A DNA stretch of 64,000 nt from a virus (IMGVR_UViG_3300020048_000009:147679-211678); one strand, 5' to 3'; shown: positions 1 to 16,290, numbered from the stretch's first letter. Notes: generated from the sequence alone by a model not told the origin. Numbers and translations: made by a program.

Positions 1-2
1 TG

Positions 3-491
3 TCTATAGATGATATTCTTAAGGCTTGTGAAATTATGCATGGTGAACAAGAAGGCTTTGTTCTTGTAGATAAAAACTTTAATAGAGTTAAAGTTAAGTC
101 TCCTTTCTATGTTACATTACATCACGCTAAAGATAATGGCCAATTTACTTCTGAAAAGGCTATTAGAATTATTCAAATAAATGAAGTAGATGAATTTTTA
201 ACATACTTCCCTGAATTTAAGCCTTTCTTTGATGAAATAATTGTTTTAGTAGATGATTATGTTTCAGATATGGCACAATGTTTATGTATTGTTTTAGATG
301 GTGTTGAATTTTTATCTAGAAAAGATATTGCGTTACAACTTAAATCACATAAAGCAGCCTGGTATGGTTTTATGGTTTTAGATAAAATTCTTAAACATGA
401 AGTATATCAAATGCCAAGAGATTGTTTTGAAAAGATGGATTCATCCAGAGCAGCAAAGTTTATAGGAGAAAAGTCAATTAAAGTGGCTTAA
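3..491 (+). CDS. T4 Rnl1-like RNA ligase, C-terminal part (5' truncated by window edge)
   Basis: Frame is open from base 3; EGFVLVD..RVKVKS matches nucleotidyltransferase motifs IV and V, followed by a helical C-terminal domain. Confidence 0.7.
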   Translation, partial: SIDDILKACEIMHGEQEGFVLVDKNFNRVKVKSPFYVTLHHAKDNGQFTSEKAIRIIQINEVDEFLTYFPEFKPFFDEIIVLVDDYVSDMAQCLCIVLDGVEFLSRKDIALQLKSHKAAWYGFMVLDKILKHEVYQMPRDCFEKMDSSRAAKFIGEKSIKVA

Positions 492-493
492 TT

Positions 494-1177
494 ATGGCAA
501 AAGAATTATATATATGGGGCGATCCACATTTAAATCATGATAATATTAGACGTTTTTGTGGGCGTCCCTTTCCTACGGTTAAGGAAATGAATGAAGCATT
601 GATTAGCAATTATAATGAGGTTGTTAATCCTAAAGATGATGTTATAATTGTTGGTGATTTTGCTTGGAGTGATCATAACCATTTTCTAGCACAATTACAT
701 GGTAGAAAAACACTAATAATCGGTAATCATGACAAAATGCCAGAAGCGGTACTTAGAAACTTTACTCAAGTTATTGGAACACCGACAAAACCAGGTATTT
801 TAGAAACATGTATTGCTGGACAAAAAATATCGTTTAGTCATTATCCATTATATTCATGGAATGCTTCATTTCATGGAAGTTGGAATATTCATGGTCATTG
901 CCACGGAAGATTAACAGAATTTGATGATCTTCTAAGAACAGATGCGGGTGTAGATTTATATAATTTCTATCCTGTTAATTTTGAAGTTCTAAAATTAAAA
1001 TTACAAAGTAGAGTTCCCGCTTGGAAGAAGAAAATGGAAGAAGTTCATCCAGAAGGTGATGAGACATCTTTATCTAAAAATAAAACAGAATCTTTAAAGT
1101 TTAAACAAATGTTTGAAGAACAAAAAGCTAAAAATACAAATCTACTTAAAGTAGACTATACATATAGAAAGGCTTAA
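494..1177 (+). CDS. calcineurin-like metallophosphoesterase
   Basis: GDPH, VGDF, GNHD and HGHCH motifs. Confidence 0.9.
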   Translation: MAKELYIWGDPHLNHDNIRRFCGRPFPTVKEMNEALISNYNEVVNPKDDVIIVGDFAWSDHNHFLAQLHGRKTLIIGNHDKMPEAVLRNFTQVIGTPTKPGILETCIAGQKISFSHYPLYSWNASFHGSWNIHGHCHGRLTEFDDLLRTDAGVDLYNFYPVNFEVLKLKLQSRVPAWKKKMEEVHPEGDETSLSKNKTESLKFKQMFEEQKAKNTNLLKVDYTYRKA

Positions 1178-1178
1178 A

Positions 1179-1853
1179 ATGGACACACCGACATATTACG
1201 ATAATGTATGTAATGAAGCATTAGATCTTCAAAAACAAATGAATTTAACAGACGTCCAAACCCTTCTTTATAATCATATTTGTAGGGGTGATTTCTATCT
1301 TAGGAATGAAGATGGCCAACATTTTTATGATATTAATAATGAAGGTTTCGGTTATTTTGGTGAACGTGCTTGGGTTAAGAGACAATTTAGTAAACTTGTA
1401 AATGCGGGTTTAGTAAAATTTGAGTCTTTAAGAGATTGCAGGTCAAAACAATGTACTTCTTGGGTTTGGTATTTACCTAAATTTAATTATAACGATTTGG
1501 TTGATGCTTGTTGCTATGTTACTACACATAATTTAGCAATGATCAAAGACCGTTTCAATCTCCCAGATGGATTTTCTAAAGTTGGTAAATATGGAGATTT
1601 AGAATTAATTAAGAACAATGAAGGTTATACTTTTAAGTATAAAGGCGAAGAAAGTATATATTCTTGGGATTATGATGGTAAAGGTATAAAAGAAGATTTG
1701 ACGGATATAACAGGACAACCAACATGGGAATCCGCTCAATATTATGATTCATTTTCTGAGATGTCGCATGATATTATATCGTTCATGGTTAATGACGGGT
1801 ATAAATTAAAAAATGTTAAGGGATATACACAAAAACGGAGGTTTAAAATCTAA
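1179..1853 (+). CDS. hypothetical protein
   Basis: 224-aa ORF tightly packed in the operon. Confidence 0.7.
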   Translation: MDTPTYYDNVCNEALDLQKQMNLTDVQTLLYNHICRGDFYLRNEDGQHFYDINNEGFGYFGERAWVKRQFSKLVNAGLVKFESLRDCRSKQCTSWVWYLPKFNYNDLVDACCYVTTHNLAMIKDRFNLPDGFSKVGKYGDLELIKNNEGYTFKYKGEESIYSWDYDGKGIKEDLTDITGQPTWESAQYYDSFSEMSHDIISFMVNDGYKLKNVKGYTQKRRFKI

Positions 1854-1854
1854 A

Positions 1855-2259
1855 ATGAGTAATGTAATTAAAATTCGAGTTGAAACATCACAAATAGTGG
1901 AAACATGTAAACAAGCGGTTGAAAAACTTGCTATTTATAAAGCTAAAAAATATGAAGAATTGCTTTTAGCTATGGTTAGACCAGTAGAATATAGTTTTTT
2001 TGGTTTAATAAAAACACAAAGCGCTGTTGATAGAGAAAAAGCTATTGAAATTATTAAAAATTGTGAATTTTATGACTATTATGAGCGTTATGCTGGAAAG
2101 GCAACCCAAATTTATTACGAATATAGAAGTCAATATGAAGGTCTTAAAGAATTAATGTTAAAATTAATTCCATATGCTCCTGATAGTACTGAAGGCTCAA
2201 TGCTTTTGCCGCTTGATGCATGGAATGAAATTTGTAATATTTCATTGATGAAAGTATAA
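1855..2259 (+). CDS. hypothetical protein
   Basis: ATG at 1855, right after the upstream stop, preferred over 1813. Confidence 0.7.
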   Translation: MSNVIKIRVETSQIVETCKQAVEKLAIYKAKKYEELLLAMVRPVEYSFFGLIKTQSAVDREKAIEIIKNCEFYDYYERYAGKATQIYYEYRSQYEGLKELMLKLIPYAPDSTEGSMLLPLDAWNEICNISLMKV

Positions 2260-2261
2260 CC

Positions 2262-2786
2262 ATGAAAACATTAGATAAATATGCATTTAAAAATGCTACA
2301 TGCGTTACAATGCAAACGTTGATTGGTGTTTCTACTAGAAGGTTTCCAGTAGATCACGGTAATTGTTTTTCTATTAAATGTGATAATAATATACAGTATA
2401 AAATTGTTAATTTTGTATTAGAAAATTTAGAAAGATTGGTAGAAAAAAAGATTATAAATTGGCCTATTAGAATTCTTCCAATTTCAGAAAGACACGCAGT
2501 AATTATAGATGAAAGAATTCCTGAAAAGTGGTATAGTAAAAAATATTGTGAAGTTTGCTGTCCGTTTGATTTATTACCTCATAATCAAAAAATGTCATAT
2601 GTTAGAAAATTATTGACTAAAGAAATTGAAGAAATTGAATGTCAAGATGGTTCTATTATAGTAAAAAGAGAATTTAAAACGCCGCCACAAAGAACATTAA
2701 AACCAGGATGGACTGTACAACAAGAAACTGATAGTGGTATTATATACTGTGATAGTATTCCGGTAAATTTAAAAAAGAAAATATGA
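2262..2786 (+). CDS. hypothetical protein
   Basis: 174-aa ORF in operon. Confidence 0.7.
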   Translation: MKTLDKYAFKNATCVTMQTLIGVSTRRFPVDHGNCFSIKCDNNIQYKIVNFVLENLERLVEKKIINWPIRILPISERHAVIIDERIPEKWYSKKYCEVCCPFDLLPHNQKMSYVRKLLTKEIEEIECQDGSIIVKREFKTPPQRTLKPGWTVQQETDSGIIYCDSIPVNLKKKI

Positions 2787-3094
2787 GAATTAATAAAATT
2801 ATATGTATACTTTTAGCTTTTTCTTTTATATGTGGATGTGCCACATATTTTGAAAGAAGTGAGTATCCTAGATATAACCAGTATTATCCTGCAACTAAAA
2901 GGGATTATGAAGTATTATCTACTGTAACACATGATATTATTTATGGAACAGGATCTCCTCACAATGTAGGGGGTGAAATAGGTGTTCTTTTGTCTCCGAT
3001 AATAATTCCATGTTTTTTAATAGATTTACCTATTTCTATAACATTTGATACGTTGTTTTTCCCTCTTGATTATTTCGATAAAAACTCAAACTAA
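2783..3094 (+). CDS. YceK/YidQ family (DUF1375) lipoprotein
   Basis: Signal peptide with lipobox FICGC; C-terminal IDLPISITFDTLFFP matches the family DLPxSxxxDTLxxP motif. Confidence 0.75.
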   Translation: MRINKIICILLAFSFICGCATYFERSEYPRYNQYYPATKRDYEVLSTVTHDIIYGTGSPHNVGGEIGVLLSPIIIPCFLIDLPISITFDTLFFPLDYFDKNSN

Positions 3095-3107
3095 AATATA
3101 AAACGTT

Positions 3108-3152
3108 GGTATATTTTAACCTCTATGTTATGTATAGTATTATACATAACAT
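3108..3152 (+). promoter_or_regulatory. putative early promoter GGTATAT-N18-TATAGT overlapping a 12-bp perfect inverted repeat
   Basis: GGTATATTTTAA at 3108; IR atgttatgtata(3125-3136)/tatacataacat(3141-3152). Confidence 0.5.
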
Positions 3153-3176
3153 TTCGTATTTATAAGGAGCAATTAT

Positions 3177-3530
3177 ATGGGTTACATGGGATTAGAGAAT
3201 TATATGGCATCTGATGAAGCATCAGATTTTGTTTGTACTGTTCTTGGAAGCATTGAAAAAGACTGCGAAAAACAACTTAAAAATAAAGCCAATGAGTATA
3301 ATACTCCAGGATATGTTAATATTGCTCTATTTGCTGAAGCATTTTTAAAGAATATTTCAATCTATTCAGATGATAAGCTATATAAGATTTTAGAGCAAGT
3401 AAAAAACAAGCTTGATGAACAAGTAAAAGCTATTAAGAAAATGGAATATTGGAAAGACCAACAAATGCATATTACAGCATTTAAACGGATGTCCAAAAAT
3501 ATTAAGAAAATTTTAGAAAATGCCTATTAA
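3177..3530 (+). CDS. hypothetical protein
   Basis: AGGAG RBS; 117 aa. Confidence 0.75.
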   Translation: MGYMGLENYMASDEASDFVCTVLGSIEKDCEKQLKNKANEYNTPGYVNIALFAEAFLKNISIYSDDKLYKILEQVKNKLDEQVKAIKKMEYWKDQQMHITAFKRMSKNIKKILENAY

Positions 3531-3541
3531 AAGGGCGTGTT

Positions 3542-3676
3542 ATGATAGTAAGCGATTTAATAGAACTATTAAAAAGTATGCCGCCAGATAAACACGTTAA
3601 AATATGTGCAGGCTATACTTTTTTGTTACAGGGTGTAACATGTTCTGACGATGATGATTATGTTGAATTATATTAA
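3542..3676 (+). CDS. small hypothetical protein (not in the ORF track)
   Basis: 44 aa, MIVSDLIELLKSMPPDKHVK..., a typical phage small-ORF N-terminus; fills the gap exactly. Confidence 0.55.
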   Translation: MIVSDLIELLKSMPPDKHVKICAGYTFLLQGVTCSDDDDYVELY

Positions 3677-3694
3677 TTAAATAAAGGAATAAAA

Positions 3695-4696
3695 ATGAAC
3701 GATAACAAACTTAATTCAATCGGTTTCTATACAATGTATGATGAGCGCGTCAGTAAAGTTTCAGCGACTTCACAAATGAAGCGTTGTGAACTTATTATTA
3801 CAGAATATTGTAATTTCAAGTGTCCTTATTGCCGTGGTCTTGCTGATTATATCTATGGTAATAGAAAGATCAAGCAATTGACATTTAAGGAAATTTGTTA
3901 TATCATCGATCAGTGGTGTAAGCTTGAGCCTTTGGAGAGTATCAGATTTTCTGGTGGAGAACCTACTCTTCATCCCGATATTGTAGATGTTATCAAATAT
4001 GCGAAGGCAAAAGGTATTAAGAATATCGCAATTTCTACAAATGGATCTTCTCCTCAGGAATTATATGATCAGCTGTTAGAAGCAGGTGTTAATGACTGCT
4101 CAATTTCATTAGATGCTTGTTGTGCAGAAGATGGCGATCATATGGCTGGTGATAAGAAGGGTGCTTGGGATATTTTAACAAAAAACATTGCATATATCGC
4201 TAAGAAATGTTATGTTACTGTTGGTGTAGTTTTAACTCCTGAAAATGTTGATAAAACTATTGATACTGTTAGATTTGCTCATACATTAGGTGTTGCCGAT
4301 ATTCGTATTATCAGTGCTGCTCAGTGGAATCAGCCAATTCCTAGACTTAATGAAATTGAACAGGAAATTTTAGAAGCACACCCAATTCTAAAATATCGTG
4401 TTGGACATTTCGCAAATGGTGTTAATGTTAGAGGTATTTCTGATACTGATAGCAAGAGATGCTCACTTGGTTACGACGACGCAATCGTAGCGGGTGAATA
4501 TGCGTTCCCATGCATTATCTATATGCGGGAAGGTGGTAAACCTATCTGTAAGGTGGGAGATGATATGCGTGAACGTAAGATAGAATGGTTAAAGACACAT
4601 AACACACATCTTGACCCTATTTGTAAAAAGAATTGCCTGGACGTGTGCGTTTCGTACAACTGCAAATACAGAGAAATTCATGGAGAACAAGCTTAA
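3695..4696 (+). CDS. radical SAM protein
   Basis: CNFKCPYC (CxxxCxxC), FSGGEP, STNG; extra C-terminal Cys cluster. Confidence 0.9.
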   Translation: MNDNKLNSIGFYTMYDERVSKVSATSQMKRCELIITEYCNFKCPYCRGLADYIYGNRKIKQLTFKEICYIIDQWCKLEPLESIRFSGGEPTLHPDIVDVIKYAKAKGIKNIAISTNGSSPQELYDQLLEAGVNDCSISLDACCAEDGDHMAGDKKGAWDILTKNIAYIAKKCYVTVGVVLTPENVDKTIDTVRFAHTLGVADIRIISAAQWNQPIPRLNEIEQEILEAHPILKYRVGHFANGVNVRGISDTDSKRCSLGYDDAIVAGEYAFPCIIYMREGGKPICKVGDDMRERKIEWLKTHNTHLDPICKKNCLDVCVSYNCKYREIHGEQA

Positions 4697-4985
4697 CATA
4701 GAAAGATTTCCAGCATTCGAATTTACCTTTGATAAATGGAGTGCCGGAAGTTTATATAACCTTGGCATAGATGGACATAAACATCTAATGTTTAGATATG
4801 CCATGCGTTATATTAGACAATATGCAATTGGTTATTGTCATGTTGAGTATATTCAAGTTCGACCGAAGCTTGATTGCGTAGCTGTTATGTTTTTCAAAGA
4901 CGAAGTACAATTTTGGACACATTTAACTTTTTCCGAGTTTAGAAGAATATTCCCGGAAGTTCCTAACGATGAAATTTATGAATAA
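4680..4985 (+). CDS. hypothetical protein
   Basis: ATG at 4680 overlapping the upstream gene end, preferred over 4611. Confidence 0.65.
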   Translation: MENKLNIERFPAFEFTFDKWSAGSLYNLGIDGHKHLMFRYAMRYIRQYAIGYCHVEYIQVRPKLDCVAVMFFKDEVQFWTHLTFSEFRRIFPEVPNDEIYE

Positions 4986-5379
4986 GAATTTAAATAATAT
5001 AGAATTTTTAAGAAAATTAGCATTTACTGATTTATTAACTAAATGCTATAATAGAAATTGGTTAAAGTATTGTTATGACAGTACTCTTAATGCTTCTACT
5101 TATTATTTATTCATAGATATTAAGAATTTAAGGGGTATTAATAATGATTCCGGGTATTTACATGGTGATACCACGTTAAAAAATACAGGAATATATTTAA
5201 AAAAATTCGGAGATGTTGTTCGTCTTGGTGGTGATGAATTTCTTGTTATCTGTAAAAATGAAGATATATATTTAAAGGCTTTATCCTATAAGTATAAGAA
5301 ATTTCATATTACAGGTGTTAAGAGTTGTAGTCCTATAACTCGAATAATCGAAAAATTAGATAAGAAGTTAAAAAAGTAA
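4969..5379 (+). CDS. minimal stand-alone GGDEF (diguanylate cyclase-like) protein
   Basis: TDLLTKCYNR, FIDIKNLRGINN, GYLHGD and RLGGDEF occur in canonical order. Confidence 0.85.
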   Translation: MKFMNKNLNNIEFLRKLAFTDLLTKCYNRNWLKYCYDSTLNASTYYLFIDIKNLRGINNDSGYLHGDTTLKNTGIYLKKFGDVVRLGGDEFLVICKNEDIYLKALSYKYKKFHITGVKSCSPITRIIEKLDKKLKK

Positions 5380-5420
5380 GGTATATTTTAATGATGATAT
5401 TACTTATAATATCATCATTA
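5380..5420 (+). promoter_or_regulatory. putative early promoter GGTATAT-N18-TATAAT overlapping a 14-bp perfect inverted repeat
   Basis: GGTATATTTTAA at 5380; TATAAT at 5405; IR 5389-5402/5407-5420. Confidence 0.55.
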
Positions 5421-5441
5421 AGTATTTATTAAGGAGAACAT

Positions 5442-5690
5442 ATGTTAATGATTATTGGTTGGTATTTTATTGGTTTAATTGGAATAACGTCATTTTTATG
5501 GCTTTTAGACGAATTACCGTCTTTAAACCAAATTATGGTAAAAGATATACTTACGGTATGTTTTTTTAGTTCATTTGGACTATTCGTATTTGCAGGTCAT
5601 ATATTATATTTTATTATATTTTTAGTTATTACTATTCAACCGATTTTAAATACAAAAATTGTTGATATTTTTAAAAGAAAGACAAAATAA
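5442..5690 (+). CDS. small membrane protein
   Basis: AGGAG RBS; two hydrophobic segments. Confidence 0.7.
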   Translation: MLMIIGWYFIGLIGITSFLWLLDELPSLNQIMVKDILTVCFFSSFGLFVFAGHILYFIIFLVITIQPILNTKIVDIFKRKTK

Positions 5691-5691
5691 T

Positions 5692-5856
5692 ATGAAAATT
5701 AAAACAATATATGATATTAAACCATTATGGTTGAGAAGAGTTTGTGTGATATTTTTAGGTGTTCCATGCCTTATATTTATAATGTTTGGTACAGCCTGTT
5801 GTGAATGCTGTTCAGGTGTTAGGCAATTTATTAAAATATGGAAAAATGAAGTTTAA
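5692..5856 (+). CDS. small membrane protein
   Basis: ATG at 5692; one hydrophobic segment. Confidence 0.55.
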   Translation: MKIKTIYDIKPLWLRRVCVIFLGVPCLIFIMFGTACCECCSGVRQFIKIWKNEV

Positions 5857-5908
5857 AATATAAAACAAGAATTAATGACTTATGCAACACTAACGGAGGT
5901 AAATTAAC

Positions 5909-7087
5909 ATGAGAAATCTAGCATCTATACAGACAGTTGATAAAATTATTGAAATTCCTAAAGCGAATACTATTGAATTAGTTACATTTAAAAATGTGGC
6001 TTGGCAATGTGTCGCTAAAAAAGGTGAATTTGTACCTGGTGGTTTATGCGTTTATTTTGAAATCGATTCTCTTTTACCCAAAGAAAATACAGCTTTTGCT
6101 TTCATGGAAGCTCGTAAATTCAGAGTTAAAACCGTAAAATTCATGACTGAATATTTATCACAGGGTCTTGCGTTACCTATTTCAGCTTTTCCCGAGCTTG
6201 ATATTGAAAAAATGGCAGATGGTTTAGACGTTACAGAAGTATTAAAAATCACCAAGTATGAAAATGATGCAGGTGATGATGAAGAAGCTGTAGAAGAAAT
6301 GTCTAAAAATAGAAAGAAATATGGAAAATTTAGAAATCTATTAATGAAGTATAAAATTGGTAGATTTATTGTTCGTACCTTTATCGGTAATAAACCTACT
6401 GGTAATTTTCCTACACACCTTTGTGCCAAAACCGATGAAACACGTATTCAAAATCTAGTTTCTTTATTTGAAAAGGCGAAGGGTATTGAATTCATTATAT
6501 CTGAAAAATTAGAAGGTCAATCTGGTACATATATTCTACAAAAAGGTAAATTCTTTAGAAAAAATACCTTTTATGTATGTAGTAGAAATAATTGCTATCC
6601 GACAAAGATTCCTAATAACTTCTGGTATATTGCAGATAAGTATAAAATCCAAGAAATACTTGAAAGTCTTATGAGAAGTTTTAAGGATGCAACACATATA
6701 ACACTACAAGGCGAAATTGTAGGACCAAAAGTTCAGAAAAATATCTATAAATTAGAAGATCTAGAGTTTTATGCGTTCAATATAGTTGTAACCTTTAAAA
6801 ATGGCGATGTTACAGCTTTTAACCCTAAATTTATAAAAGCCTTACTAGAAATAGTATATGAACATACAGTAAAGGCGGAAAATAAAATTACACATTGTCC
6901 TATTTTAGGTACATGTATCTTAGGTGTCACACCTGGATATAGAACAGTTGAAGAAATTTTACAATCTGCTGAAGGATGTTCAACTCTTTTCAATACACAT
7001 AGAGAAGGATTAGTTCTTAGAAACATGGGAATGCATTATTCTTTCAAAGCCGTATCAAATGCATATCTATTAAAACGCGGCTACTAA
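5909..7087 (+). CDS. RNA ligase, DRB0094 (Rnl2-like) family
   Basis: N-terminal LASIQTV..IP.A..IE..W.CV.KKGEF module; motif I SEKLEG, motif III LQGEIVG, motif IV REGLV, motif V SFKAVS. Confidence 0.9.
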   Translation: MRNLASIQTVDKIIEIPKANTIELVTFKNVAWQCVAKKGEFVPGGLCVYFEIDSLLPKENTAFAFMEARKFRVKTVKFMTEYLSQGLALPISAFPELDIEKMADGLDVTEVLKITKYENDAGDDEEAVEEMSKNRKKYGKFRNLLMKYKIGRFIVRTFIGNKPTGNFPTHLCAKTDETRIQNLVSLFEKAKGIEFIISEKLEGQSGTYILQKGKFFRKNTFYVCSRNNCYPTKIPNNFWYIADKYKIQEILESLMRSFKDATHITLQGEIVGPKVQKNIYKLEDLEFYAFNIVVTFKNGDVTAFNPKFIKALLEIVYEHTVKAENKITHCPILGTCILGVTPGYRTVEEILQSAEGCSTLFNTHREGLVLRNMGMHYSFKAVSNAYLLKRGY

Positions 7088-7122
7088 AATTGTATCTGTA
7101 GCAGATACAATATGGAGCAAAT

Positions 7123-7332
7123 ATGATAGATAAACATATATATATTGAAGGTTGGAGAGATTGGCCAAAAGAATCTTTTGGTGGATGGGCGCCTGGAAAT
7201 TATGAGTATTCTATTATTTGTAGAAAATGTAATGGTAGTTACGTTGGAAGCAAATATTCATACCATTGTTATCCATGCGCATTGAAACAATATGAAGAAG
7301 ATATTCAAAAGAATTTAGGAAGCGGAATATGA
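7123..7332 (+). CDS. small Cys-rich hypothetical protein
   Basis: CxxC...CxxC; GGAG RBS. Confidence 0.6.
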   Translation: MIDKHIYIEGWRDWPKESFGGWAPGNYEYSIICRKCNGSYVGSKYSYHCYPCALKQYEEDIQKNLGSGI

Positions 7333-7550
7333 AAATTAATATTAATAATAGATGTAAAGTTATTCTTACAGAAAATGCTCTTGAATCATTATGTTTTAGT
7401 AAAGATGAAATTAAAAGACTTAATAAAGATACAAGAGAATATACCGATGAATTATGGTCTTTAATGAACACTTTTGGTGAATATTTTAAAGCAGCTGGCG
7501 ATAACCAAATATTTGAAAATAATGAAATAGAAATTATAGAAGGTACATAA
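7329..7550 (+). CDS. hypothetical protein
   Basis: ATGA-type overlap with the upstream gene. Confidence 0.65.
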   Translation: MKININNRCKVILTENALESLCFSKDEIKRLNKDTREYTDELWSLMNTFGEYFKAAGDNQIFENNEIEIIEGT

Positions 7551-7606
7551 TGAGGGCTAAGTTATATTTAGTTCCAGATAATGCATTTTAAGGAGTGGTA
7601 AAAATT

Positions 7607-8095
7607 ATGAAAATTAAAATAAGAGATTATGGCCAAAATGGAAAAGAAATTTCTATTAAAGTAAAAAATAATGGAAAAACTTCTACTAAAAAGTTTTATT
7701 ATACTCCCTCACAATTTGGTTCATCGGAAAGTTTTGAGGCTAAATCTAATACAAAGACTCCTATTTTTGTATTACTTAATATGTTATTAGAAGATATTGG
7801 ACAAAAAGATGCATTACAAGTATCCAAAGAACAAATTAAAGCCAAAAAAGAAGCAGAAAAGGCTCGTGAACATAGAATTAATGAAACAGTAAAAGCATTT
7901 AAAGCTATGTGTAAAAAAGAATTGAAAGATAGAAAAGCCAAAGGTTTATGTAATGCAATATTATATCATGGACCAGGACATCAATCTAAAACATTTTGTG
8001 AATGCAAAGGTCCACATAAAAAACATAAATGTAATTTTGGTAGATATGATGAAACAGAAGAATGGACAGGAATGAAGGGATATGCAGGGTATTAA
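7607..8095 (+). CDS. hypothetical protein with Cys/His-rich C-terminus
   Basis: AGGAG at 7591 favours ATG 7607; CNAILYHGPGHQSKTFCECKGPH. Confidence 0.7.
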   Translation: MKIKIRDYGQNGKEISIKVKNNGKTSTKKFYYTPSQFGSSESFEAKSNTKTPIFVLLNMLLEDIGQKDALQVSKEQIKAKKEAEKAREHRINETVKAFKAMCKKELKDRKAKGLCNAILYHGPGHQSKTFCECKGPHKKHKCNFGRYDETEEWTGMKGYAGY

Positions 8096-8118
8096 TATGA
8101 ACCTAAATAAAGGACAAT

Positions 8119-8343
8119 ATGAATAAATTATCAAATTATCATTTTGGTGCCGTAAGAAAAGTTCCAAAATGTAATGAAAATAGAATAGTTATAAGTACCT
8201 ATTATCCATTATGTTTAGGTGAAGATTATACACATATATATAATCCACCTGATGATTATTTGTGTATGCATCCTACAGATTGGAATATGGTATTTTGTGA
8301 GAAATGTTTAGCCCTTAAAAAACAACAAGAGGAAGTAAAATGA
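8119..8343 (+). CDS. small Cys-rich hypothetical protein
   Basis: 74-aa ORF in operon. Confidence 0.55.
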   Translation: MNKLSNYHFGAVRKVPKCNENRIVISTYYPLCLGEDYTHIYNPPDDYLCMHPTDWNMVFCEKCLALKKQQEEVK

Positions 8344-8552
8344 AATTTAATGATATAAATGTTGGACAAGTTTTTATAACAAATTTATTACCAGTAGATA
8401 TTGCGAATAAATGCGGGGTAATTTGTATAGAAAAACAACAAACACCCAATAAGCTCATTATGAAAAGAATGAATTCAGATGAACAATGGATGATTTTTGC
8501 AGATAAGACCACTGATGAATGTAATATGGGAAATTGGATTAAAAAAGATTAA
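8340..8552 (+). CDS. hypothetical protein
   Basis: MKFNDINVGQVF, a typical phage small-ORF start; GAGG RBS. Confidence 0.65.
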   Translation: MKFNDINVGQVFITNLLPVDIANKCGVICIEKQQTPNKLIMKRMNSDEQWMIFADKTTDECNMGNWIKKD

Positions 8553-8573
8553 TATAGCAAAGATGCATTAATT

Positions 8574-8614
8574 GGTGTATAGATGTTGAAATATTGTATA
8601 ATGTATTTATACAA
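8574..8614 (+). promoter_or_regulatory. putative early promoter GGTGTAT-N16-TATAAT with an 8-bp inverted repeat
   Basis: GGTGTAT at 8574, TATAAT at 8597, IR ttgtataa/ttatacaa. Confidence 0.45.
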
Positions 8615-8652
8615 ATGGATATACCATTTATCATATCAGAGGAATATAAAAA

Positions 8653-9843
8653 ATGAAAACAGTAATTGGAAAGTATAATGAAGCAAAAATTTTTGCAACA
8701 ACAGTTGAAGCTTCATGTGAACAGCAAATTTTAGATTTATGTAATGAGTCTTGGGCGCAGGATTGTAATATCCGTATTATGCCTGATTGCCATTCTGGAA
8801 AGGGATGTGTAATCGGTACTACTATGACAATCAAAGATAAGATCGTACCCAATTTGGTAGGCGTAGATATTGGCTGCGGTATGCTTACTACTAAGTTCAG
8901 AGCATTAAAGCTTGATTTAAAGCAAGTTGATAGAACAATTAAGCAGGAAATTCCTATGGGTAGAAATATTCATAACGAAGCTCTTGTTGATTTTTCGCCT
9001 GAATTGAATAAGCTTTGGGCCGTTAAAAAGGAAATAGGTTTTGATAAGGTTTCTAGAAGTCTTGGTTCTTTGGGTGGTGGAAATCACTTCATTGAAATCG
9101 GAAAAGACGAAGATGATTGTTATTATCTAGTTATCCATAGCGGTTCAAGAAACTTTGGTAAGAAGGTAGCTGAATACTATCAGGGTAAAGCTGTTGATTA
9201 TCATAAACTTCTTACAGGTGATGCTAGAAAGGCTTTTATTGAACAATTAAAGTCAGAAGGTCGTCAAGATGAAATTAAAGATGCTTTAATTAAATATAAT
9301 GAGCAGTATAATACTGATTTGTGTTATTTAGAGGGCGCATTATTTAATTCATATTTAAACGATATGAAAATTGCTCAGAAGTTTGCTTCTTTAAACAGAT
9401 ATACTATCGCTAATATTTTATGTAAGGCTTTTCAGGTTGGACCAATAGAACAATTTGAAACAGTTCATAACTATATTGATACTGATAATATGATTCTAAG
9501 AAAAGGCGCAATTTCAGCTCAAAAGGATGAAAAGTGTTTAATCCCTATTAATATGAGAGATGGTTCTTTATTATGTGTCGGTAAGGGTAATGTTGATTTT
9601 AACTATTCTGCTCCTCATGGTGCAGGACGTTTAATGTCACGTACTAAGGCTAGACACGAGTTATCATTAGATGAGTTTAAGGATACAATGTCTAATGTAT
9701 ATTCATCTACTGTTGGAATGTCAACACTTGATGAAGCGCCTATGGCATATAAGCCAATAGCAGAAATCTTAGAAAATATTAAAGATACTGTTGATGTTAT
9801 AACACAGATTAAACCTATTTATAACGTTAAAGCAGAAGAGTAA
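8653..9843 (+). CDS. rtcB: RtcB family RNA 3'-phosphate ligase
   Basis: MPDCHSG, VGVDIGCG, GSLGGGNHFIE, HSGSRNFG, HGAGRLMSR, DEAPMAYK. Confidence 0.97.
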   Translation: MKTVIGKYNEAKIFATTVEASCEQQILDLCNESWAQDCNIRIMPDCHSGKGCVIGTTMTIKDKIVPNLVGVDIGCGMLTTKFRALKLDLKQVDRTIKQEIPMGRNIHNEALVDFSPELNKLWAVKKEIGFDKVSRSLGSLGGGNHFIEIGKDEDDCYYLVIHSGSRNFGKKVAEYYQGKAVDYHKLLTGDARKAFIEQLKSEGRQDEIKDALIKYNEQYNTDLCYLEGALFNSYLNDMKIAQKFASLNRYTIANILCKAFQVGPIEQFETVHNYIDTDNMILRKGAISAQKDEKCLIPINMRDGSLLCVGKGNVDFNYSAPHGAGRLMSRTKARHELSLDEFKDTMSNVYSSTVGMSTLDEAPMAYKPIAEILENIKDTVDVITQIKPIYNVKAEE

Positions 9844-9847
9844 AATT

Positions 9848-10081
9848 ATGAGAAGAGAATTCATTACAGAAATTTGTTCATGTTTTAAATGCCCTATTTT
9901 AGAGAATAGGGAAGAAATTAAAAGCTGTATTTTGGGTTCTGCTTGGTTTGAATATAAACATTGTTTTTATTTTGGTAATAGTTGTAAAACAGATTTCTCA
10001 GAAGAGCAAGATAATAAATTAAGACTTGAATTAGAGGTCTGGTTTAGAAATTGTCCAAAATGGAAATATATAGGAGAATAA
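9848..10081 (+). CDS. small Cys-rich hypothetical protein
   Basis: CFKCP and CPKW; packed in operon. Confidence 0.6.
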   Translation: MRREFITEICSCFKCPILENREEIKSCILGSAWFEYKHCFYFGNSCKTDFSEEQDNKLRLELEVWFRNCPKWKYIGE

Positions 10082-10084
10082 ATT

Positions 10085-10468
10085 ATGAAAAAATTCTTTA
10101 AAAACCTTTTTATTAAAATTGGTGTTATTAAAAAAATTGATAAAAGTCAAACAATAGAAGAAAGAGAACAGGAATTAGTCAAGAAAGTAAATGATATTCT
10201 TCTTGAACCTGAGAGTATTGATACAATGATTCCCCCGTGTAAGAAATGTATTCATTACAAGGGGTATGATTTAAAATCATTACGGCCAGACTGTATTAGA
10301 CCAACCGGCGATAGAACTATCGTAAATGATTATGAAAATGGTATTAGTAGTTCTATTATTGATAGAATTCATAGAGAATGTTGTAGAGAAAGAGAAATAT
10401 CATCTGAAAAATATAGAATTAGATGTGGTCCGTGTGCACTTTTCTTTAAAGAAAAGGAAATAAAATAA
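10085..10468 (+). CDS. hypothetical protein
   Basis: CKKCIHY...C...C...CGP metal-binding pattern. Confidence 0.65.
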   Translation: MKKFFKNLFIKIGVIKKIDKSQTIEEREQELVKKVNDILLEPESIDTMIPPCKKCIHYKGYDLKSLRPDCIRPTGDRTIVNDYENGISSSIIDRIHRECCREREISSEKYRIRCGPCALFFKEKEIK

Positions 10469-10470
10469 TT

Positions 10471-10656
10471 ATGACTAATGTAGAAAAAATGGCTAAAATC
10501 TTAAAAGATGAAGGCGTAACACATTTTAATATGTTTTTACCTTCATGTCCAAAGGATGCTTCAGAAGAATATAAAGCTGGTGAATTTTTAAGAATGTATA
10601 AAAATATGAACAGTGGTAAAACAATTCATGGTGTTGAAGGATTCGATTTTTGGTAA
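10471..10656 (+). CDS. small hypothetical protein
   Basis: Packed in operon. Confidence 0.6.
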   Translation: MTNVEKMAKILKDEGVTHFNMFLPSCPKDASEEYKAGEFLRMYKNMNSGKTIHGVEGFDFW

Positions 10657-10659
10657 GTT

Positions 10660-10998
10660 ATGAATATTAAAGACTTACCTAAAGATGCATATGCTAGAAT
10701 AATAAGTACAAGTTTAAGTATTTATAAGAGAGCAGAATTTGTATATAGAACAGATGAGGATAGTTTGCTTACGCCTGGTACAGGTTTTCCAATATTTACA
10801 GGTTTTTTTAAAAAGATACCAGAAACATATAATGATTTTGAAATAGAAATCATAAGTAAAGAGGAATTTAAGAAGGCTGATGTTTATAATAGACCTAAAA
10901 AGCCATTAAAATTACTTGATAGTCGTATAACATTACAAGAGTGGAATAATTTATCAAAAGAAGAAAGATGGCCAGATTTATATGAAAAAGAATTATAA
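10660..10998 (+). CDS. hypothetical protein
   Basis: Packed in operon. Confidence 0.6.
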   Translation: MNIKDLPKDAYARIISTSLSIYKRAEFVYRTDEDSLLTPGTGFPIFTGFFKKIPETYNDFEIEIISKEEFKKADVYNRPKKPLKLLDSRITLQEWNNLSKEERWPDLYEKEL

Positions 10999-11332
10999 AT
11001 ATGTAACACCACTAGAAGCATTTAGACTTGGGTATGAATATGAAACGACATGTGTCTTTTGTAAGAGAAAAGGTTTGACTAATATACATATGCATCATAT
11101 AGTACCTAGAGCAAAAGGTGGAAAAGAAGTAGCTCCTACCTGTAGTGATTGTGAAGGATTTATTCATAATACTTGGAGTCATAATGAACTTAGAGATACA
11201 TATAATACCGTAGAAATTATCAAAAAAGACGAGAAATATCAAAAGTTTCTTAAATGGCTTTTAAAACAGAAACCTGAAAAGAGTTTTAAAACTATTAGAA
11301 ATAATAATAGACCAAAAGGAAAATATACATGA
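10982..11332 (+). CDS. small HNH endonuclease
   Basis: CVFC...HHIVPRAKGG...TCSDCEGFIH. Confidence 0.85.
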   Translation: MKKNYKYVTPLEAFRLGYEYETTCVFCKRKGLTNIHMHHIVPRAKGGKEVAPTCSDCEGFIHNTWSHNELRDTYNTVEIIKKDEKYQKFLKWLLKQKPEKSFKTIRNNNRPKGKYT

Positions 11333-12117
11333 AGACAGTTGTTTTAGGTAATGGATATTTAGGTTCAGAATTTAAAGATCAAGGTTTTACTGTCTTAGGA
11401 AGAGACGAATTTGAAGTAATAAAACTTCCCAGGGATCAACATAAATATTTTGATAAAATATTATCTGAATATGATGTTATTATTAATTGTATTGCAACAA
11501 GTAATACTAGATTCTGTGAAGAGTATTTTGAAGAAGCATATTTTACAAATTGTCAAATTCCTGCATATTTAAGCACTTGGTGTAAGAAAAATGGTAAAAA
11601 ATATGTTCATATTTCTACTGGATGTTTATATGATAAGAATAATATCCCACAAAAAGAAACAGATTTTATAGCAGCACATTGTAACTATACTCTTAGTAAA
11701 TGGATGGGTGAAAAAGCATGCCAACCTCAAGATTTAATCATACGCCCACGTTTACTTTTTGACTATAAAGATAATCCTAAAAATTTATTATTAAAACTTA
11801 AAAAATATAACAGACTTACTAGAGAATTAGATAGCGCAACTAGTACAAGGACTGTAGTACAGGCTGTTACACATTTACTTAAAGCCGAACAAAGTGGAAT
11901 ATTTAATGTTGCATGCGAAGGTTATATTAGTATGGCAGAAATAGGAACTTTACTAGGAAAAACGACTATAGAAGAAGTTTCAATAGACGATGTTCGTAAA
12001 CAACAGAATTTATATATTGTTAATACAATAATGGATATATCAAAATTAAAACAATTCTATACTCCTTCTGATATTAAAGAAGAAATTGAAATAATGAATA
12101 AAGGTATTAAAACATGA
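11329..12117 (+). CDS. NAD-dependent epimerase/RmlD-like nucleotide-sugar reductase (extended SDR)
   Basis: GNGYLG Rossmann motif, HISTG, YTLSK (YxxxK). Confidence 0.85.
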   Translation: MKTVVLGNGYLGSEFKDQGFTVLGRDEFEVIKLPRDQHKYFDKILSEYDVIINCIATSNTRFCEEYFEEAYFTNCQIPAYLSTWCKKNGKKYVHISTGCLYDKNNIPQKETDFIAAHCNYTLSKWMGEKACQPQDLIIRPRLLFDYKDNPKNLLLKLKKYNRLTRELDSATSTRTVVQAVTHLLKAEQSGIFNVACEGYISMAEIGTLLGKTTIEEVSIDDVRKQQNLYIVNTIMDISKLKQFYTPSDIKEEIEIMNKGIKT

Positions 12118-12254
12118 AAAAAATTATTGTAGTGGGTAGATTTTTGGTTGCAGATACAACTAATAAAAATGGTTCATATTCCAGAATATATGATAAGGAA
12201 TATGTACATTTTTTAAAAACCTCGGTTAATAGTAGAGAGAAAAACAAAAAATAA
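12114..12254 (+). CDS. small hypothetical protein (not in the ORF track)
   Basis: 46 aa, MKKIIVVGRFLVADTTNKNG...; ATGA overlap with the upstream stop and ends 1 nt before the next ATG. Confidence 0.55.
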   Translation: MKKIIVVGRFLVADTTNKNGSYSRIYDKEYVHFLKTSVNSREKNKK

Positions 12255-12255
12255 T

Positions 12256-12990
12256 ATGAATACACAAGATGCAGAGTATATAAATACGACAATAAAAGAA
12301 GAAGGATTTGATTATTGTTTTGATGGATATTCTAGTTTTGAAGATATTAAAGATGAACGTTTTCATTCTTTAAGACAAAAATATCTAAATGCTAAAAAAG
12401 ATCTAAAACAATATATTCAAGTAAGTTTACCTAATTGTGGTGTTCCAGAAGGAATAGATATTGAAGCTGAATTATGGAAAGCTTTAGGTGAATCTATGAA
12501 AGAAGAAGCAAAAAAAGAAGATTTAGAATTTTTAGAACAGTTAGAAAAGTTTTATAAAAGAACAACATATAAAGGTGAGATAACAGAATTAAAACCTAAT
12601 CAAGTGTTTGTGTTCGGTTCCAACACACAGGGGCGTCATGGAAAAGGAGCAGCATTATTGGCTAAGGAGAAGTTCGGAGCTATCCAGGGGCATCCTGAAG
12701 GCTTCCAGGGTCAATCCTATGCTATAATAACAAAAGACTTAACCAAAACAGTCCACCCGTCTGTTTCTGAAGAAAAAATAATAGAACAGATACAACGATT
12801 ATATGAATTTGCTAATGTAAATAAAGATCACGAATTTATTGTTGCATATAAGGGAAATTCGTATAATTTAAATGCGTATACATCACAACAAATGGCAGTT
12901 ATGTTTTCAAAATTTGATATTCCTGAGAATATTGTTTTTGAAGAAGAATTCGCCAAATTAATAGAAAAACAACAAAAAGAAAAGGTATAA
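12256..12990 (+). CDS. two-domain protein; C-terminal A1S_2505-like phage domain
   Basis: ITELKPNQVFVFGSN..GRHGKGAA..A..FGA..G..EG.QGQSYAI motif. Confidence 0.7.
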   Translation: MNTQDAEYINTTIKEEGFDYCFDGYSSFEDIKDERFHSLRQKYLNAKKDLKQYIQVSLPNCGVPEGIDIEAELWKALGESMKEEAKKEDLEFLEQLEKFYKRTTYKGEITELKPNQVFVFGSNTQGRHGKGAALLAKEKFGAIQGHPEGFQGQSYAIITKDLTKTVHPSVSEEKIIEQIQRLYEFANVNKDHEFIVAYKGNSYNLNAYTSQQMAVMFSKFDIPENIVFEEEFAKLIEKQQKEKV

Positions 12991-12991
12991 T

Positions 12992-14080
12992 ATGGATAGT
13001 AAATTATTCATTCCAAAGAAAATAAAAGTAGGGTTTAATAATAGAAGCGATACCTATACAGGTAAGCTTGGATATGTAATTTATTGGGATGCTAAAGGCG
13101 TTCTTCGTAAAGTTAATTCTTGGGAAGGTTGGAGATCTAAGGAAATTGAACCTCAAGAGTTTAATAATGAACCCATGGAAGGTTTCGTTTTAAATCGTGA
13201 TGTTGGTGGCGGAAGACGCTCATATTATTCATGGGATGCACGTATAGAAAAGGTTAGAGTTTATGATCCTAGAGGATTTGAATTCGAAATTTCTATTCCT
13301 AATTTGTTGTTTATTCTACAAGAATGTACTTCTACTAAAGGTAAAGGCATTGAGGGTGAAATGGTATATTCATGGAATGGTCCAGAATTAGTGCTTTTAC
13401 CTGTTTCATGTAAAGAGTATAAGGAATGTCTAAATTATACAGAATATCAGAAATGTAAGTTCAGCGCTAAAAACTTAAAGGTCGGTTTGACATATAGAAC
13501 TAAGAAAATGGAAGATTATGTTTATATGGGACAATATGTCTGGACACCTTGCTATGGTTCATCATATGGTAAAAAATGCCATATATTTGGACAATATGAA
13601 ATAAATCAATATAGTAAGAAACCATATACAAATTTTAGAGCTACTACTTCTACAGATTTCTTAGCAGAGCAAGTTGGTGATGCAGTAGATCCTACATTCG
13701 CAGACCTATTTACAGCATTAGAAAAAGAAGATGGATATGCTACATGCACTAGTATTGTAGTAAAAAAACCTGAAAATCGTTATAGCAGCAGAGATAATTA
13801 TAATAAATGTGGAATTTTCTATAAGAATGAATATTATATTGGAAGTCTTTCACATGATTATAAATATCCCAATAAGGATTATAGTAAACAGGGTTCATAT
13901 AAATATGAAGTCGAATTAAATAAAAAGGTTTCAATTGTTGATGGGGGTTTAGTAGAAAAAATAATTAAAGAACCCATTAAAATTGAATGTACAGATCTTA
14001 CAGCAGAAGGTATTACCTGTGGAGCGCTTATCGCGACAAATTCAAAAAATAAAGAAAATCATATCGTATACGTATACTAA
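12992..14080 (+). CDS. conserved phage protein of unknown function
   Basis: IPKKIKVGF..R.DTYTGKLGYVIY..KGVLRK..SWEGWR and RVYDPRGFEFEISIPNL blocks resemble a recurrent phage family. Confidence 0.65.
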   Translation: MDSKLFIPKKIKVGFNNRSDTYTGKLGYVIYWDAKGVLRKVNSWEGWRSKEIEPQEFNNEPMEGFVLNRDVGGGRRSYYSWDARIEKVRVYDPRGFEFEISIPNLLFILQECTSTKGKGIEGEMVYSWNGPELVLLPVSCKEYKECLNYTEYQKCKFSAKNLKVGLTYRTKKMEDYVYMGQYVWTPCYGSSYGKKCHIFGQYEINQYSKKPYTNFRATTSTDFLAEQVGDAVDPTFADLFTALEKEDGYATCTSIVVKKPENRYSSRDNYNKCGIFYKNEYYIGSLSHDYKYPNKDYSKQGSYKYEVELNKKVSIVDGGLVEKIIKEPIKIECTDLTAEGITCGALIATNSKNKENHIVYVY

Positions 14081-15121: not shown

Positions 15122-16120
15122 ATGAATGAATTACTAACAAGAGATGATTTTAGAGAATCCGTTTTTAAAAGAGACGGATTCAAATGTCTTTTTTGTGATT
15201 GTACTGAAAATTTAGATGCGCATCACATTATAGAACGTCGTTTATTCACAGATGGTGGATATTATATTGATAATGGAGCAACCCTTTGTCAAAAACATCA
15301 CTTAATGGCAGAATCTACTGAATTAACTTGTACTGAACTTAGAGAAAAAGCTAATATCAAAACGATAGTTTTGCCTGAAGATTTTTACAGCGATTGTAAT
15401 TATGATAAATGGGGAAATATTTATATTGGCCAATTGCGAACAAAGGGGCCGTTATTTTTTAATGAAAGCGTTCAGAAAATATTAACTGGTAGTTTTACAG
15501 ATTTTGTAAAATATCCTAGAACATATCATTTGCCCTGGTCAGAGTCTAAAACTGATGATGATAGAACACTGACAAATGTGGATCATTTTCTTAATGAAGA
15601 AGTAGTTGTTACAGAAAAAATGGATGGTGAAAATTCCACTCTTTATAATAATTATTTCCATGCTAGAAGTTTAGATGGAAATAGTCATTGGACACAAAAT
15701 TGGTTAAAGAATTTTCATGCCTGTTTTAAATTTGATATTCCGACTGGTTGGCGTATTTGTGGCGAAAATGTATATGCCAAACATAGTATTAAATATGAAA
15801 ATCTTCCTTCATATTTCTTCTGTTTCTCTATTTGGACCGATAGAAATCTCTGTTTATCCTGGGATGATACTCTAGATTGGTGTAAATTATATGAAATTGA
15901 ACATGTTCCAGTTTTATACGAAGGTATTTTTGATGAAGAAGTTATTAGAAACTTACCTTTAAATAAAGAAAAGCAAGAGGGATATGTTATTCGTAAACGA
16001 AAAGCTTTTGCTTATGGTGAATTTTCAAAATCTATTGCAAAATTTGTAAGAAAAAATCATGTACAAGATACTGTACATAATTGGAAAAGCAGTAAAATTG
16101 AAGTTAATGGTTTAGAATAA
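15122..16120 (+). CDS. HNH nuclease-RNA ligase fusion
   Basis: N-terminal VFKRD..CLFC..LDAHHI..N..LC..HH; C-terminal KYPRTYHL, TEKMDGEN, CGEN, EGYVIR, KFVR. Confidence 0.85.
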   Translation: MNELLTRDDFRESVFKRDGFKCLFCDCTENLDAHHIIERRLFTDGGYYIDNGATLCQKHHLMAESTELTCTELREKANIKTIVLPEDFYSDCNYDKWGNIYIGQLRTKGPLFFNESVQKILTGSFTDFVKYPRTYHLPWSESKTDDDRTLTNVDHFLNEEVVVTEKMDGENSTLYNNYFHARSLDGNSHWTQNWLKNFHACFKFDIPTGWRICGENVYAKHSIKYENLPSYFFCFSIWTDRNLCLSWDDTLDWCKLYEIEHVPVLYEGIFDEEVIRNLPLNKEKQEGYVIRKRKAFAYGEFSKSIAKFVRKNHVQDTVHNWKSSKIEVNGLE

Positions 16121-16122
16121 AT

Positions 16123-16290
16123 ATGATTAATTTTAAAAAAATATGGAATATATGGGCAAAAGCGTTAGGCCCAAAAGCTTCTGATAATGATAAAGAAGCC
16201 GATTATATTGCTATAATTAGAACAGTAATCTTATTGATATATATTATAACAAATATTGTAATTATGGGTGGTGTTTGGAGACATTGGTAA
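16123..16290 (+). CDS. small conserved phage membrane protein (not in the ORF track)
   Basis: 55 aa, W..WAKALG.KA...D.EAD.IA.IRT...IITN....G..RHW, a pattern seen in T4-like phages. Confidence 0.7.
   Translation: MINFKKIWNIWAKALGPKASDNDKEADYIAIIRTVILLIYIITNIVIMGGVWRHW

Follow-up and report, generated by a model that had tools for sequence, protein, structure and literature searches.

A minimal, sensor-less GGDEF gene in a large phage from lake metagenomes

We analyse here a small GGDEF gene carried by a phage that is represented in IMG/VR by a 211,678-bp record, estimated to be 84% complete. The stretch of DNA under study, called the window throughout, is the last 64 kb of that record (IMGVR_UViG_3300020048_000009:147679-211678), and coordinates are given on it. 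The gene lies on the plus strand at 4978..5379, where it is defined by translation of the open reading frame (ORF), by Pfam and NCBIfam matches above their cut-offs and by a conserved start, and its product is the only GGDEF match in the record. An earlier note on this DNA had read it as a stand-alone phage GGDEF protein that lacks both a sensor and the inhibitory site (I-site) of the family, and this identification is right. Several phages already have annotated small GGDEF genes, and the value of the present case therefore does not lie in the discovery of the gene itself; this one is unusually short at its C-terminus.

The gene, its fold and its catalytic residues

The reading frame extends over 4969..5379 on the plus strand and holds 136 codons from its first ATG to a TAA stop, with an intact RLGGDEF motif at residues 85-91 (nt 5221-5241), which bears out the frame of about 135 amino acids (aa) that had been described for it. 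Residues are numbered throughout on the 136-aa version, which begins at ATG 4969. An 86%-identical relative (contig L162) lacks the 9 nt in which this first ATG lies, whereas the next, ATG 4978, is kept there. The latter overlaps the stop codon of the upstream gene, and it is also the start that gene callers chose for an identical protein of 133 aa (P0002) on a 274-kb contig. Because ATG 4969 is absent from the relative, while ATG 4978 is both conserved and chosen by gene callers, the product is most likely the 133-aa protein that begins at ATG 4978 (MNKNL...).

Membership in the GGDEF family is supported by matches to Pfam GGDEF (PF00990; 34.8 bits against a cut-off of 23.8) and to TIGR00254 (39.2 bits against 37.4), with profile coverage of the GGDEF match that is partial and confined to positions 1-91 of 161. 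From 36 relatives, AlphaFold2 (AF2) models a compact GGDEF palm domain with a predicted local distance difference test score (pLDDT) of 90.5 and a predicted template-modelling score (pTM) of 0.83. The model runs from a helix at residues 4-19 into the palm domain, which has a hairpin between strands 82-87 and 90-95, followed by a helix at 98-105, a strand at 112-119 and a final helix at 123-135. A structure search of the PDB returned 94 matches at E <= 0.001, and the top 50 listed are all GGDEF domains, nearly all of them diguanylate cyclases (DGCs). The best structural matches include PleD (E = 2.8e-8), DgcB (6ttr, template-modelling score (TM) 0.81) and WspR (3i5a, TM 0.80), along with DgcZ and tDGC, and Foldseek assigns a probability of 1.00 to dozens of DGC structures. 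As the earlier note had stated, the protein has no sensor domain.

The residues that define the active site are retained. In an alignment of 36 short proteins of this architecture, which we call mini-GGDEFs, D21, N28, D50, L54, N58, G66, D67, R85 and G87-F91 are invariant, and R29 and D131 are conserved in at least 90%; the GGDEF motif is thus unchanged in all 36. The metal-binding acid and the general-base Glu of the motif (G87-G88-D89-E90-F91) are present, as is the first metal-binding Asp, D50, at the position of PleD D327. The active-site hairpin (residues 85-91; 5221..5241, plus strand) is recognised in the sequence, in the alignment and in the model, where it forms the beta-hairpin E82-87/E90-95. 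Upstream of it, the substrate-binding stretch D50-I-K-N-L-R-G-I-N58-N-D-S-G-Y-L-H-G-D67 (5116..5169, plus strand) carries the invariant D50, L54, N58, G66 and D67. The deviant DIKNLR/INN sequence that had been pointed out in this stretch is present as described, but the invariant family positions D50, L54 and N58 are nonetheless kept.

The guanine-reading residues N58 and D67 correspond to PleD N335 and D344, matched through hidden Markov model (HMM) alignments to solved DGCs. In the structural work on Hypr-GGDEF enzymes, the Asn contacts guanine and the motif acid holds Mg2+; Asp instead of Ser at the position equivalent to D67 drives GTP specificity; the Glu that forms the fourth motif residue is needed for catalysis and is proposed to act across the dimer as a general base that deprotonates the 3'-OH; and a cross-dimer Arg, found in 94% of DGCs, stacks on the other guanine and favours this base (PMC6456294). 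The Hypr features, namely Ser at the D67-equivalent position (GacA Ser348) and loss of the cross-dimer Arg, are not found here, as D67 and R29 are both present. Because N58, D67 and R29 are canonical, the protein is, as judged from its sequence, a guanine-specific GGDEF rather than a Hypr-like one, and it is likewise not an mCpol.

The domain is shortened in three places. The best solved match to a profile of the small relatives is tDGC, the stand-alone GGDEF domain of T. maritima TM1788 (4URS, E = 1.6e-23); the two align over their whole length, and the gaps in this alignment amount to about 6 residues after alpha1, exactly 4 over the RxxD ('rrsd'/RRSD) and about 18 around alpha3. The RxxD that lies five residues upstream of GG[D/E]EF is absent; the sequence there is KKFGDVVRLGGDEF, and the motif is preceded by KKFGDVVR. 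A shortened loop, KKFGDVV (5200..5220, plus strand), stands in the profile alignment to tDGC 4urs at the place of the canonical RxxD inhibitory site, and canonical domains have about 3-4 residues more at this point. Between the guanine-reading GD and the motif, mini forms have a spacer of about 18 residues, where canonical ones have 21. The absence of a canonical RxxD I-site, also claimed by the earlier note, is thus a deletion of the loop and is shared by 48 of 50 mini forms. A count of the canonical spacing of the I-site (RxxD...RxGG[DE]EF) finds it in 2/50 mini forms, against 50/80 of the best bacterial matches and 40/50 long forms on viral contigs.

At its C-terminus, the protein closes with a last helix (residues 123-135; 5335..5376, plus strand) that ends in LDKKLKK, as defined by alignments and by the identical end of the 86%-identical relative (P0003). 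The end without the usual GRN had been correctly described, but GRN is no requirement; since the active tDGC also lacks it, its absence is unimportant, and the actual loss is that of a conserved Lys, to which we return below.

One GGDEF domain holds half an active site. The N-terminal helix (residues 4-19; 4978..5025, plus strand), which leads into the LAFTD...NRN motif, is predicted by the AF2 and homodimer models to be a symmetric dimerisation stalk. We modelled the homodimer as two copies with 2 GTP and 2 Mg2+ in three runs, alongside three controls. All three runs gave an interface score (ipSAE) of 0.66, whereas the best of the 3 controls had 0.00, and a mark of 0.66 is reached by 20 of 30 solved homodimers and by 1 of 23 solved monomers; because similar GGDEF dimers have already been solved and model memory is possible, passing this mark speaks for likeness and is no proof. 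The three runs have at least 83% of contacts in common, and the pLDDT of the partner is at least 86. The contacts of lowest error are the symmetric helix pairs 14-14, 17-17, 18-18 and 11-11, and the hairpins of the two copies meet (87-87, 88-88 and 90-88), so that the interface consists of helix 5-19 and residues 86-90 of both copies. The modelled orientation is predicted to be catalytically competent. The claim that the protein has no dimerisation domain thus holds in that there is no separate sensor domain, but the helix at residues 4-19 is predicted by this modelling to pair symmetrically.

Independent support for dimerisation comes from the sequence of a natural tandem fusion, P0007 (325 aa; L171:1314-2291), which lies on a short metagenome contig and contains two complete mini-GGDEF units with both motifs intact. 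This protein is the closest non-self representative in a search of 1.84 billion proteins, and it would amount to a covalent dimer.

Selection and distribution

The L162 contig is a 3,994-bp sequence from another sample, and it carries a radical-SAM gene, a small ORF, the GGDEF gene and a small membrane protein in the same order as here. Between the two copies of the GGDEF gene, the nonsynonymous rate (dN) is 0.101 and the synonymous rate (dS) is 0.739, which gives a dN/dS of 0.137; the corresponding dN/dS for the radical-SAM gene is similar, at 0.087. The C-terminal 14 residues of the GGDEF protein are identical in this relative. In a 97%-identical lake strain from a different study, the gene has 5 differences, of which 4 are synonymous and 1 is a replacement (T69A). 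We looked for pseudogene decay and found no sign of it; the dN/dS of 0.137, together with the 4 synonymous changes against 1 replacement in the second strain, indicates at the sequence level that the gene is under purifying selection and is not decaying.

An exhaustive representative search of the 1.84-billion-protein set gives 4,209 matches. Among the best 150 of these, about 45 are proteins of 125-200 aa that have an intact motif followed by 45-62 residues, against about 80 in canonical domains. IMG/VR contains 182 confirmed GGDEF relatives, with mini forms on at least 9 distinct contigs that range from 4.7 kb to 248 kb. Three metagenomic mini forms that were looked up lie in phage or phage-like contexts, and one, P0004, lies among bacterial-looking genes. 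These sequence comparisons suggest that the mini architecture is strongly enriched in phages, although it is neither exclusive to them nor supported as monophyletic. A 'virus-only' mini-GGDEF was considered and is ruled out by P0004. Similarly, mini forms as a clade find no support in a FastTree of 290 domains, in which the mini label needs 25 changes and a 105-row set is shared with long forms. As the tree needs this many changes of label, 'mini-GGDEF' is used here for an architecture and no proven clade.

The best 80 matches in 185,579 prokaryote species genomes, each represented by one genome, are all at least 291 aa, are 31-41% identical and are taxonomically scattered, and no host assignment is possible from these nearest bacterial GGDEFs.

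Sensor-less small GGDEF proteins also occur in isolated phages, namely in SP-15 (183 aa), Bacillus phage G (gp350, 254 aa) and Bordetella phage CN1 (152 aa), with Foldseek E-values against BFVD of 5.5e-10 to 3.9e-8. The Bacillus phage SP-15 protein, SP15_150, is annotated as 'diguanylate cyclase' and is 36% identical over residues 14-116. These three proteins are longer and have other neighbours, whereas the protein described here is shorter at the C-terminus. The SP-15 gene (L166, KT624200.1 133541-134092) adjoins a UTP-glucose-1-phosphate uridylyltransferase, two glycosyltransferases and a CDP-glycerol glycerophosphotransferase, a neighbourhood reminiscent of polysaccharide synthases controlled by cyclic dimeric guanosine monophosphate (c-di-GMP) or of the SP-15 DNA hypermodification pathway.

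We further note a mini-GGDEF of 147 aa (8001-8444) in a block of small early-type genes on a 36.8-kb phage contig (L168) that also encodes a holin, a Bro-N protein and a DNA ligase. The same block holds a dGTP-diphosphohydrolase-like gene and, a few kb from the mini-GGDEF, a gene similar to Tad2, a Thoeris anti-defence protein (15817-16140).

Phage and gene neighbourhood

The element had been described as a lytic phage carrying the gene in an early operon. That it is a phage is supported by virion proteins, a helicase and a large terminase of the T4 type, which is 33% identical to cyanophage TerL; no tyrosine integrase was found in the element. The G+C content is about 29%. Its DNA is present in aquatic and lake metagenomes from at least 2 studies, and no near-identical DNA was found in GenBank phages. 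Promoter-like sites are at chance level (23 found against 22.2 expected from shuffles) and so lend no support to an early operon, and the sequencing runs labelled RNA, which probably represent DNA, cover only parts of the radical-SAM gene.

The GGDEF gene is the last of three overlapping genes. The first (3695..4696, plus strand) encodes a radical-SAM enzyme of 333 aa with a Cys-rich C-terminus (Pfam Radical_SAM, E = 3.9e-22) that is distantly MoaA- or viperin-like; its best named match is MoaA, but this falls far below the cut-off. The second, orf101 (4680..4985, plus strand), is an ORFan of 101 aa that shares 17 nt with the end of the radical-SAM gene and 8 nt with the start of the GGDEF gene. 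In L162, its counterpart is an ORF called as 99 aa at the same place. Searches with orf101 gave no Pfam, PHROG, PADLOC or atlas match and no homologue but itself, and its atlas model is poor. Near the end of the radical-SAM gene, at 4649-4653, one nucleotide is deleted and another is inserted 4 nt away in the lake strain (run X2); the two together form a compensated frameshift that changes one or two codons. Radical-SAM homologues are found at 60% identity in the 735-kb LR756501/LR756503 and at 57% in the 485-kb LR745208 (56% G+C), and the gene appears to be shared among huge phages. Neither a GGDEF gene nor orf101 adjoins the homologues in the huge phages LR756501 and LR745208.

Right after the GGDEF stop lies a perfect 15-bp hairpin composed only of A and T and followed by a U-rich stretch (5388..5421, plus strand). 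It has a folding energy of -16 kcal/mol (z = -3.6), and 0/200 shuffles are as good. The hairpin is kept in L162 with three substitutions and was missed by a terminator scan that requires G+C. It is a probable terminator or processing site that closes the unit formed by the radical-SAM gene, orf101 and the GGDEF gene, probably of a terminator type that G+C-based scans miss in a phage of 29% G+C. On the 3' side of the hairpin are two small overlapping ORFs of 82 and 65 aa (5442-5690 and 5659-5856) with predicted membrane helices. The ORF at 5442-5690 has a 31%-identical counterpart in L162; neither ORF has a family match, and small membrane proteins are not consistent neighbours of mini-GGDEFs.

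The unit is flanked by a DRB0094-type RNA ligase, RtcB and a phosphoesterase (window positions 5909-7087, 8653-9843 and 494-1177). Judged by gene content, these genes would make the surroundings an accessory block of counter-defence type with an RNA-repair arsenal. Single-protein scans of IMG/VR with the radical-SAM protein, orf101 and the RNA ligase gave no close relatives.

Proposed function and relation to known systems

From the sequence and the models, we regard it as reasonably probable that the protein is a constitutive, feedback-blind diguanylate cyclase that acts on host c-di-GMP receptors. Two copies would pair through the N-terminal helix, which would bring the GGDEF half-sites face to face. 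Each copy would bind one GTP, with D50 and D89/E90 holding Mg2+ and N58 and D67 reading the guanine; R29 and E90 would then act across the dimer, and the two GTPs would be joined into c-di-GMP. Because the RxxD loop is deleted, the product could not lock the dimer in an inactive state, and output would be set only by the amount of protein. No c-di-GMP-I or -II riboswitch, PilZ or EAL domain was found in the 211.7-kb record (84% complete); as the record encodes no c-di-GMP receptor or degrading enzyme, the product would have to act on receptors of the host. We infer that motility or pili would be shut down and that surface polysaccharide or aggregation would increase, which would in turn change receptor display or superinfection. 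That the phage alters host c-di-GMP had been proposed from the outset, and among the readings considered it is the best supported, by the conserved catalytic and guanine-reading residues, by purifying selection and by a homodimer that is predicted to be competent.

Several observations weigh against a cyclase of this kind. At least 90% of mini-GGDEFs keep the Lys of the C-terminal AD..(M/L)Y..K motif, and here the stop falls 2 residues before it, with the end ...LDKKLKK common to this protein and to the 86%-identical relative. We take the missing Lys to be the position of PleD K442, reportedly a contact to the GTP phosphates (Wassmann et al., 2007). K135 and K136 might substitute for it, and its loss is the main reason why our confidence in catalysis is not higher. 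The protein further departs from the family in having Arg at position 55 in place of the usual Lys, and INN in place of IND. The literature searched reports no activity or phenotype for any phage mini-GGDEF. Of the ORFs at window positions 1-14000, the GGDEF gene alone has relatives among 11 other viral loci with a mini-GGDEF, so that no conserved neighbour hints at a target. Finally, c-di-GMP is a defence signal in some Bacteroidota, according to PMC13725321, which cites Morehouse 2020; in such hosts, c-di-GMP synthesis would harm the phage.

The loss of the Lys and of part of the last helix in this lineage, together with the K55R and D59N departures from consensus, could also point to a crippled enzyme that acts by binding, either by holding GTP or by forming dead heterodimers with a host DGC through the stalk helix, and thus lowers c-di-GMP. 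Interference with host DGCs through binding has a precedent in phages, namely peptides that bind P. aeruginosa YfiN (PMC8085984). A pure binder would, however, not need the metal-binding, base-reading and general-base residues, which are intact and under purifying selection, and the self-dimer is predicted in a catalytically competent orientation. The RxxD I-site is where the known degenerate GGDEF receptors bind c-di-GMP. As this site is deleted here and the catalytic residues are invariant, the GTP-binding decoy or heterodimer poison that the earlier note had also offered is disfavoured; we consider it unlikely, with a small but appreciable chance of being correct. The same truncation of the C-terminus, in what is the shortest class of GGDEF proteins and with a Pfam alignment that covers 1-91 of 161, might instead mark a decaying remnant without function. 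To this we assign the slimmest chance of all, as dN/dS is 0.14 at a dS of 0.74, the C-terminal 14 residues are identical in the relative, synonymous changes outnumber replacements 4 to 1 in the second strain, the whole fold is predicted with confidence, and the short architecture recurs in dozens of lineages.

Two further explanations draw on gene context. One holds that the product, be it c-di-GMP or another cyclic or linear dinucleotide, is a counter-defence nucleotide that saturates or desensitises receptors or keeps a Panoptes-type guard silent. It fits the accessory block, rich in genes of counter-defence type (several RNA ligases, RtcB and phosphoesterases), and the mini-GGDEF that lies a few kb from a Tad2-like gene in another phage; moreover, a minimal palm cyclase can make decoy nucleotides, and phage counter-measures have been predicted (PMC12657218). 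These points come from context, whereas the guanine-specificity residues N58, D67 and R29 are canonical, so that the protein is not Hypr-like, there is no Pfam mCpol match at E <= 1, a PADLOC scan gave no match for the GGDEF protein, and no defence-related neighbour recurs across loci. We hold this explanation to be improbable, and give slightly less credence still to its extension to mini-GGDEFs in general, according to which their unchecked production of c-di-GMP or a closely related nucleotide would block host immune signalling through cyclic nucleotides or forestall it, whether by competition for the receptors or because a Panoptes-type guard is kept satisfied while the sponges of the phage act. 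Such a role would explain why genes that lack all regulatory elements lie in accessory or anti-defence blocks, with RNA repair here and a Tad2-like gene elsewhere. The other explanation joins the MoaA-like radical-SAM enzyme, orf101 and the GGDEF protein into one pathway that leads from GTP to a modified guanine nucleotide or dinucleotide. The overlaps of 17 nt and 8 nt, the conservation of the trio and its closing hairpin in L162, and a radical-SAM best named match to the GTP-using MoaA, albeit far below the cut-off, speak in its favour. Tight packing is, however, normal in phage genomes, the radical-SAM homologues of two huge phages (57-60% identity) have no GGDEF gene or orf101 nearby, 0/11 other mini-GGDEF loci have a relative of either neighbour, and the shared gene order is confined to this lineage; we rate a three-gene pathway as very improbable.

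If the protein is an active diguanylate cyclase, its 133 residues would place it among the smallest natural enzymes of this kind, and it would define a minimal catalytic core in which the I-site is absent, the alpha3 region is shortened and the last helix is truncated. Large phages of lytic type would then write the c-di-GMP signal of their hosts directly and not merely read or perturb it, which bears on motility, polysaccharides, aggregation and superinfection in natural waters.

Among known systems, OptS/mCpol of Panoptes is close to the phage protein in size; it is a stand-alone nucleotide cyclase built on a very small palm domain, and its output is constitutive (PMC12657218), as is proposed here. 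In mCpol, the GGDEF motif is nearly absent, the product is 2',3'-c-di-AMP and an effector is paired with the enzyme, whereas the phage protein belongs to PF00990 and has the residues that read guanine, and its neighbourhood revealed no effector-like gene.

A parallel within the GGDEF family is tDGC (T. maritima TM1788 residues 82-248; PDB 4URS, 4URG and 4URQ). It works as a lone GGDEF domain with no sensor, and its sequence ends in ...ADMRMYKAKEMK, with no GRN. Its production of c-di-GMP is robust, and product no longer inhibits it once the I-site is mutated (R158A; PMC4215984). At 167 residues, tDGC retains the whole alpha3 region as well as an RxxD I-site (R158) through which product locks the enzyme. 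The phage protein is missing the 4 I-site residues, some 6 residues that follow alpha1, some 18 in the region of alpha3 and the final turn of the last helix, which carries the Lys.

The predicted mode of pairing resembles that of the stalk or coiled-coil DGCs, which include WspR and its fusion with a GCN4 zipper (3I5C), DgcB (6TTR) and SiaD (7E6G). In these enzymes, a helix that precedes the GGDEF domain pairs the catalytic domains, as is predicted here, and the model has a TM of 0.76-0.81 to 6ttr, 3i5a and 7e6g and of 0.68 to 3i5c. The stalk of these DGCs is controlled by a receiver, a partner protein or phosphorylation, whereas that of the phage protein would be a bare helix of about 16 residues with nothing upstream.

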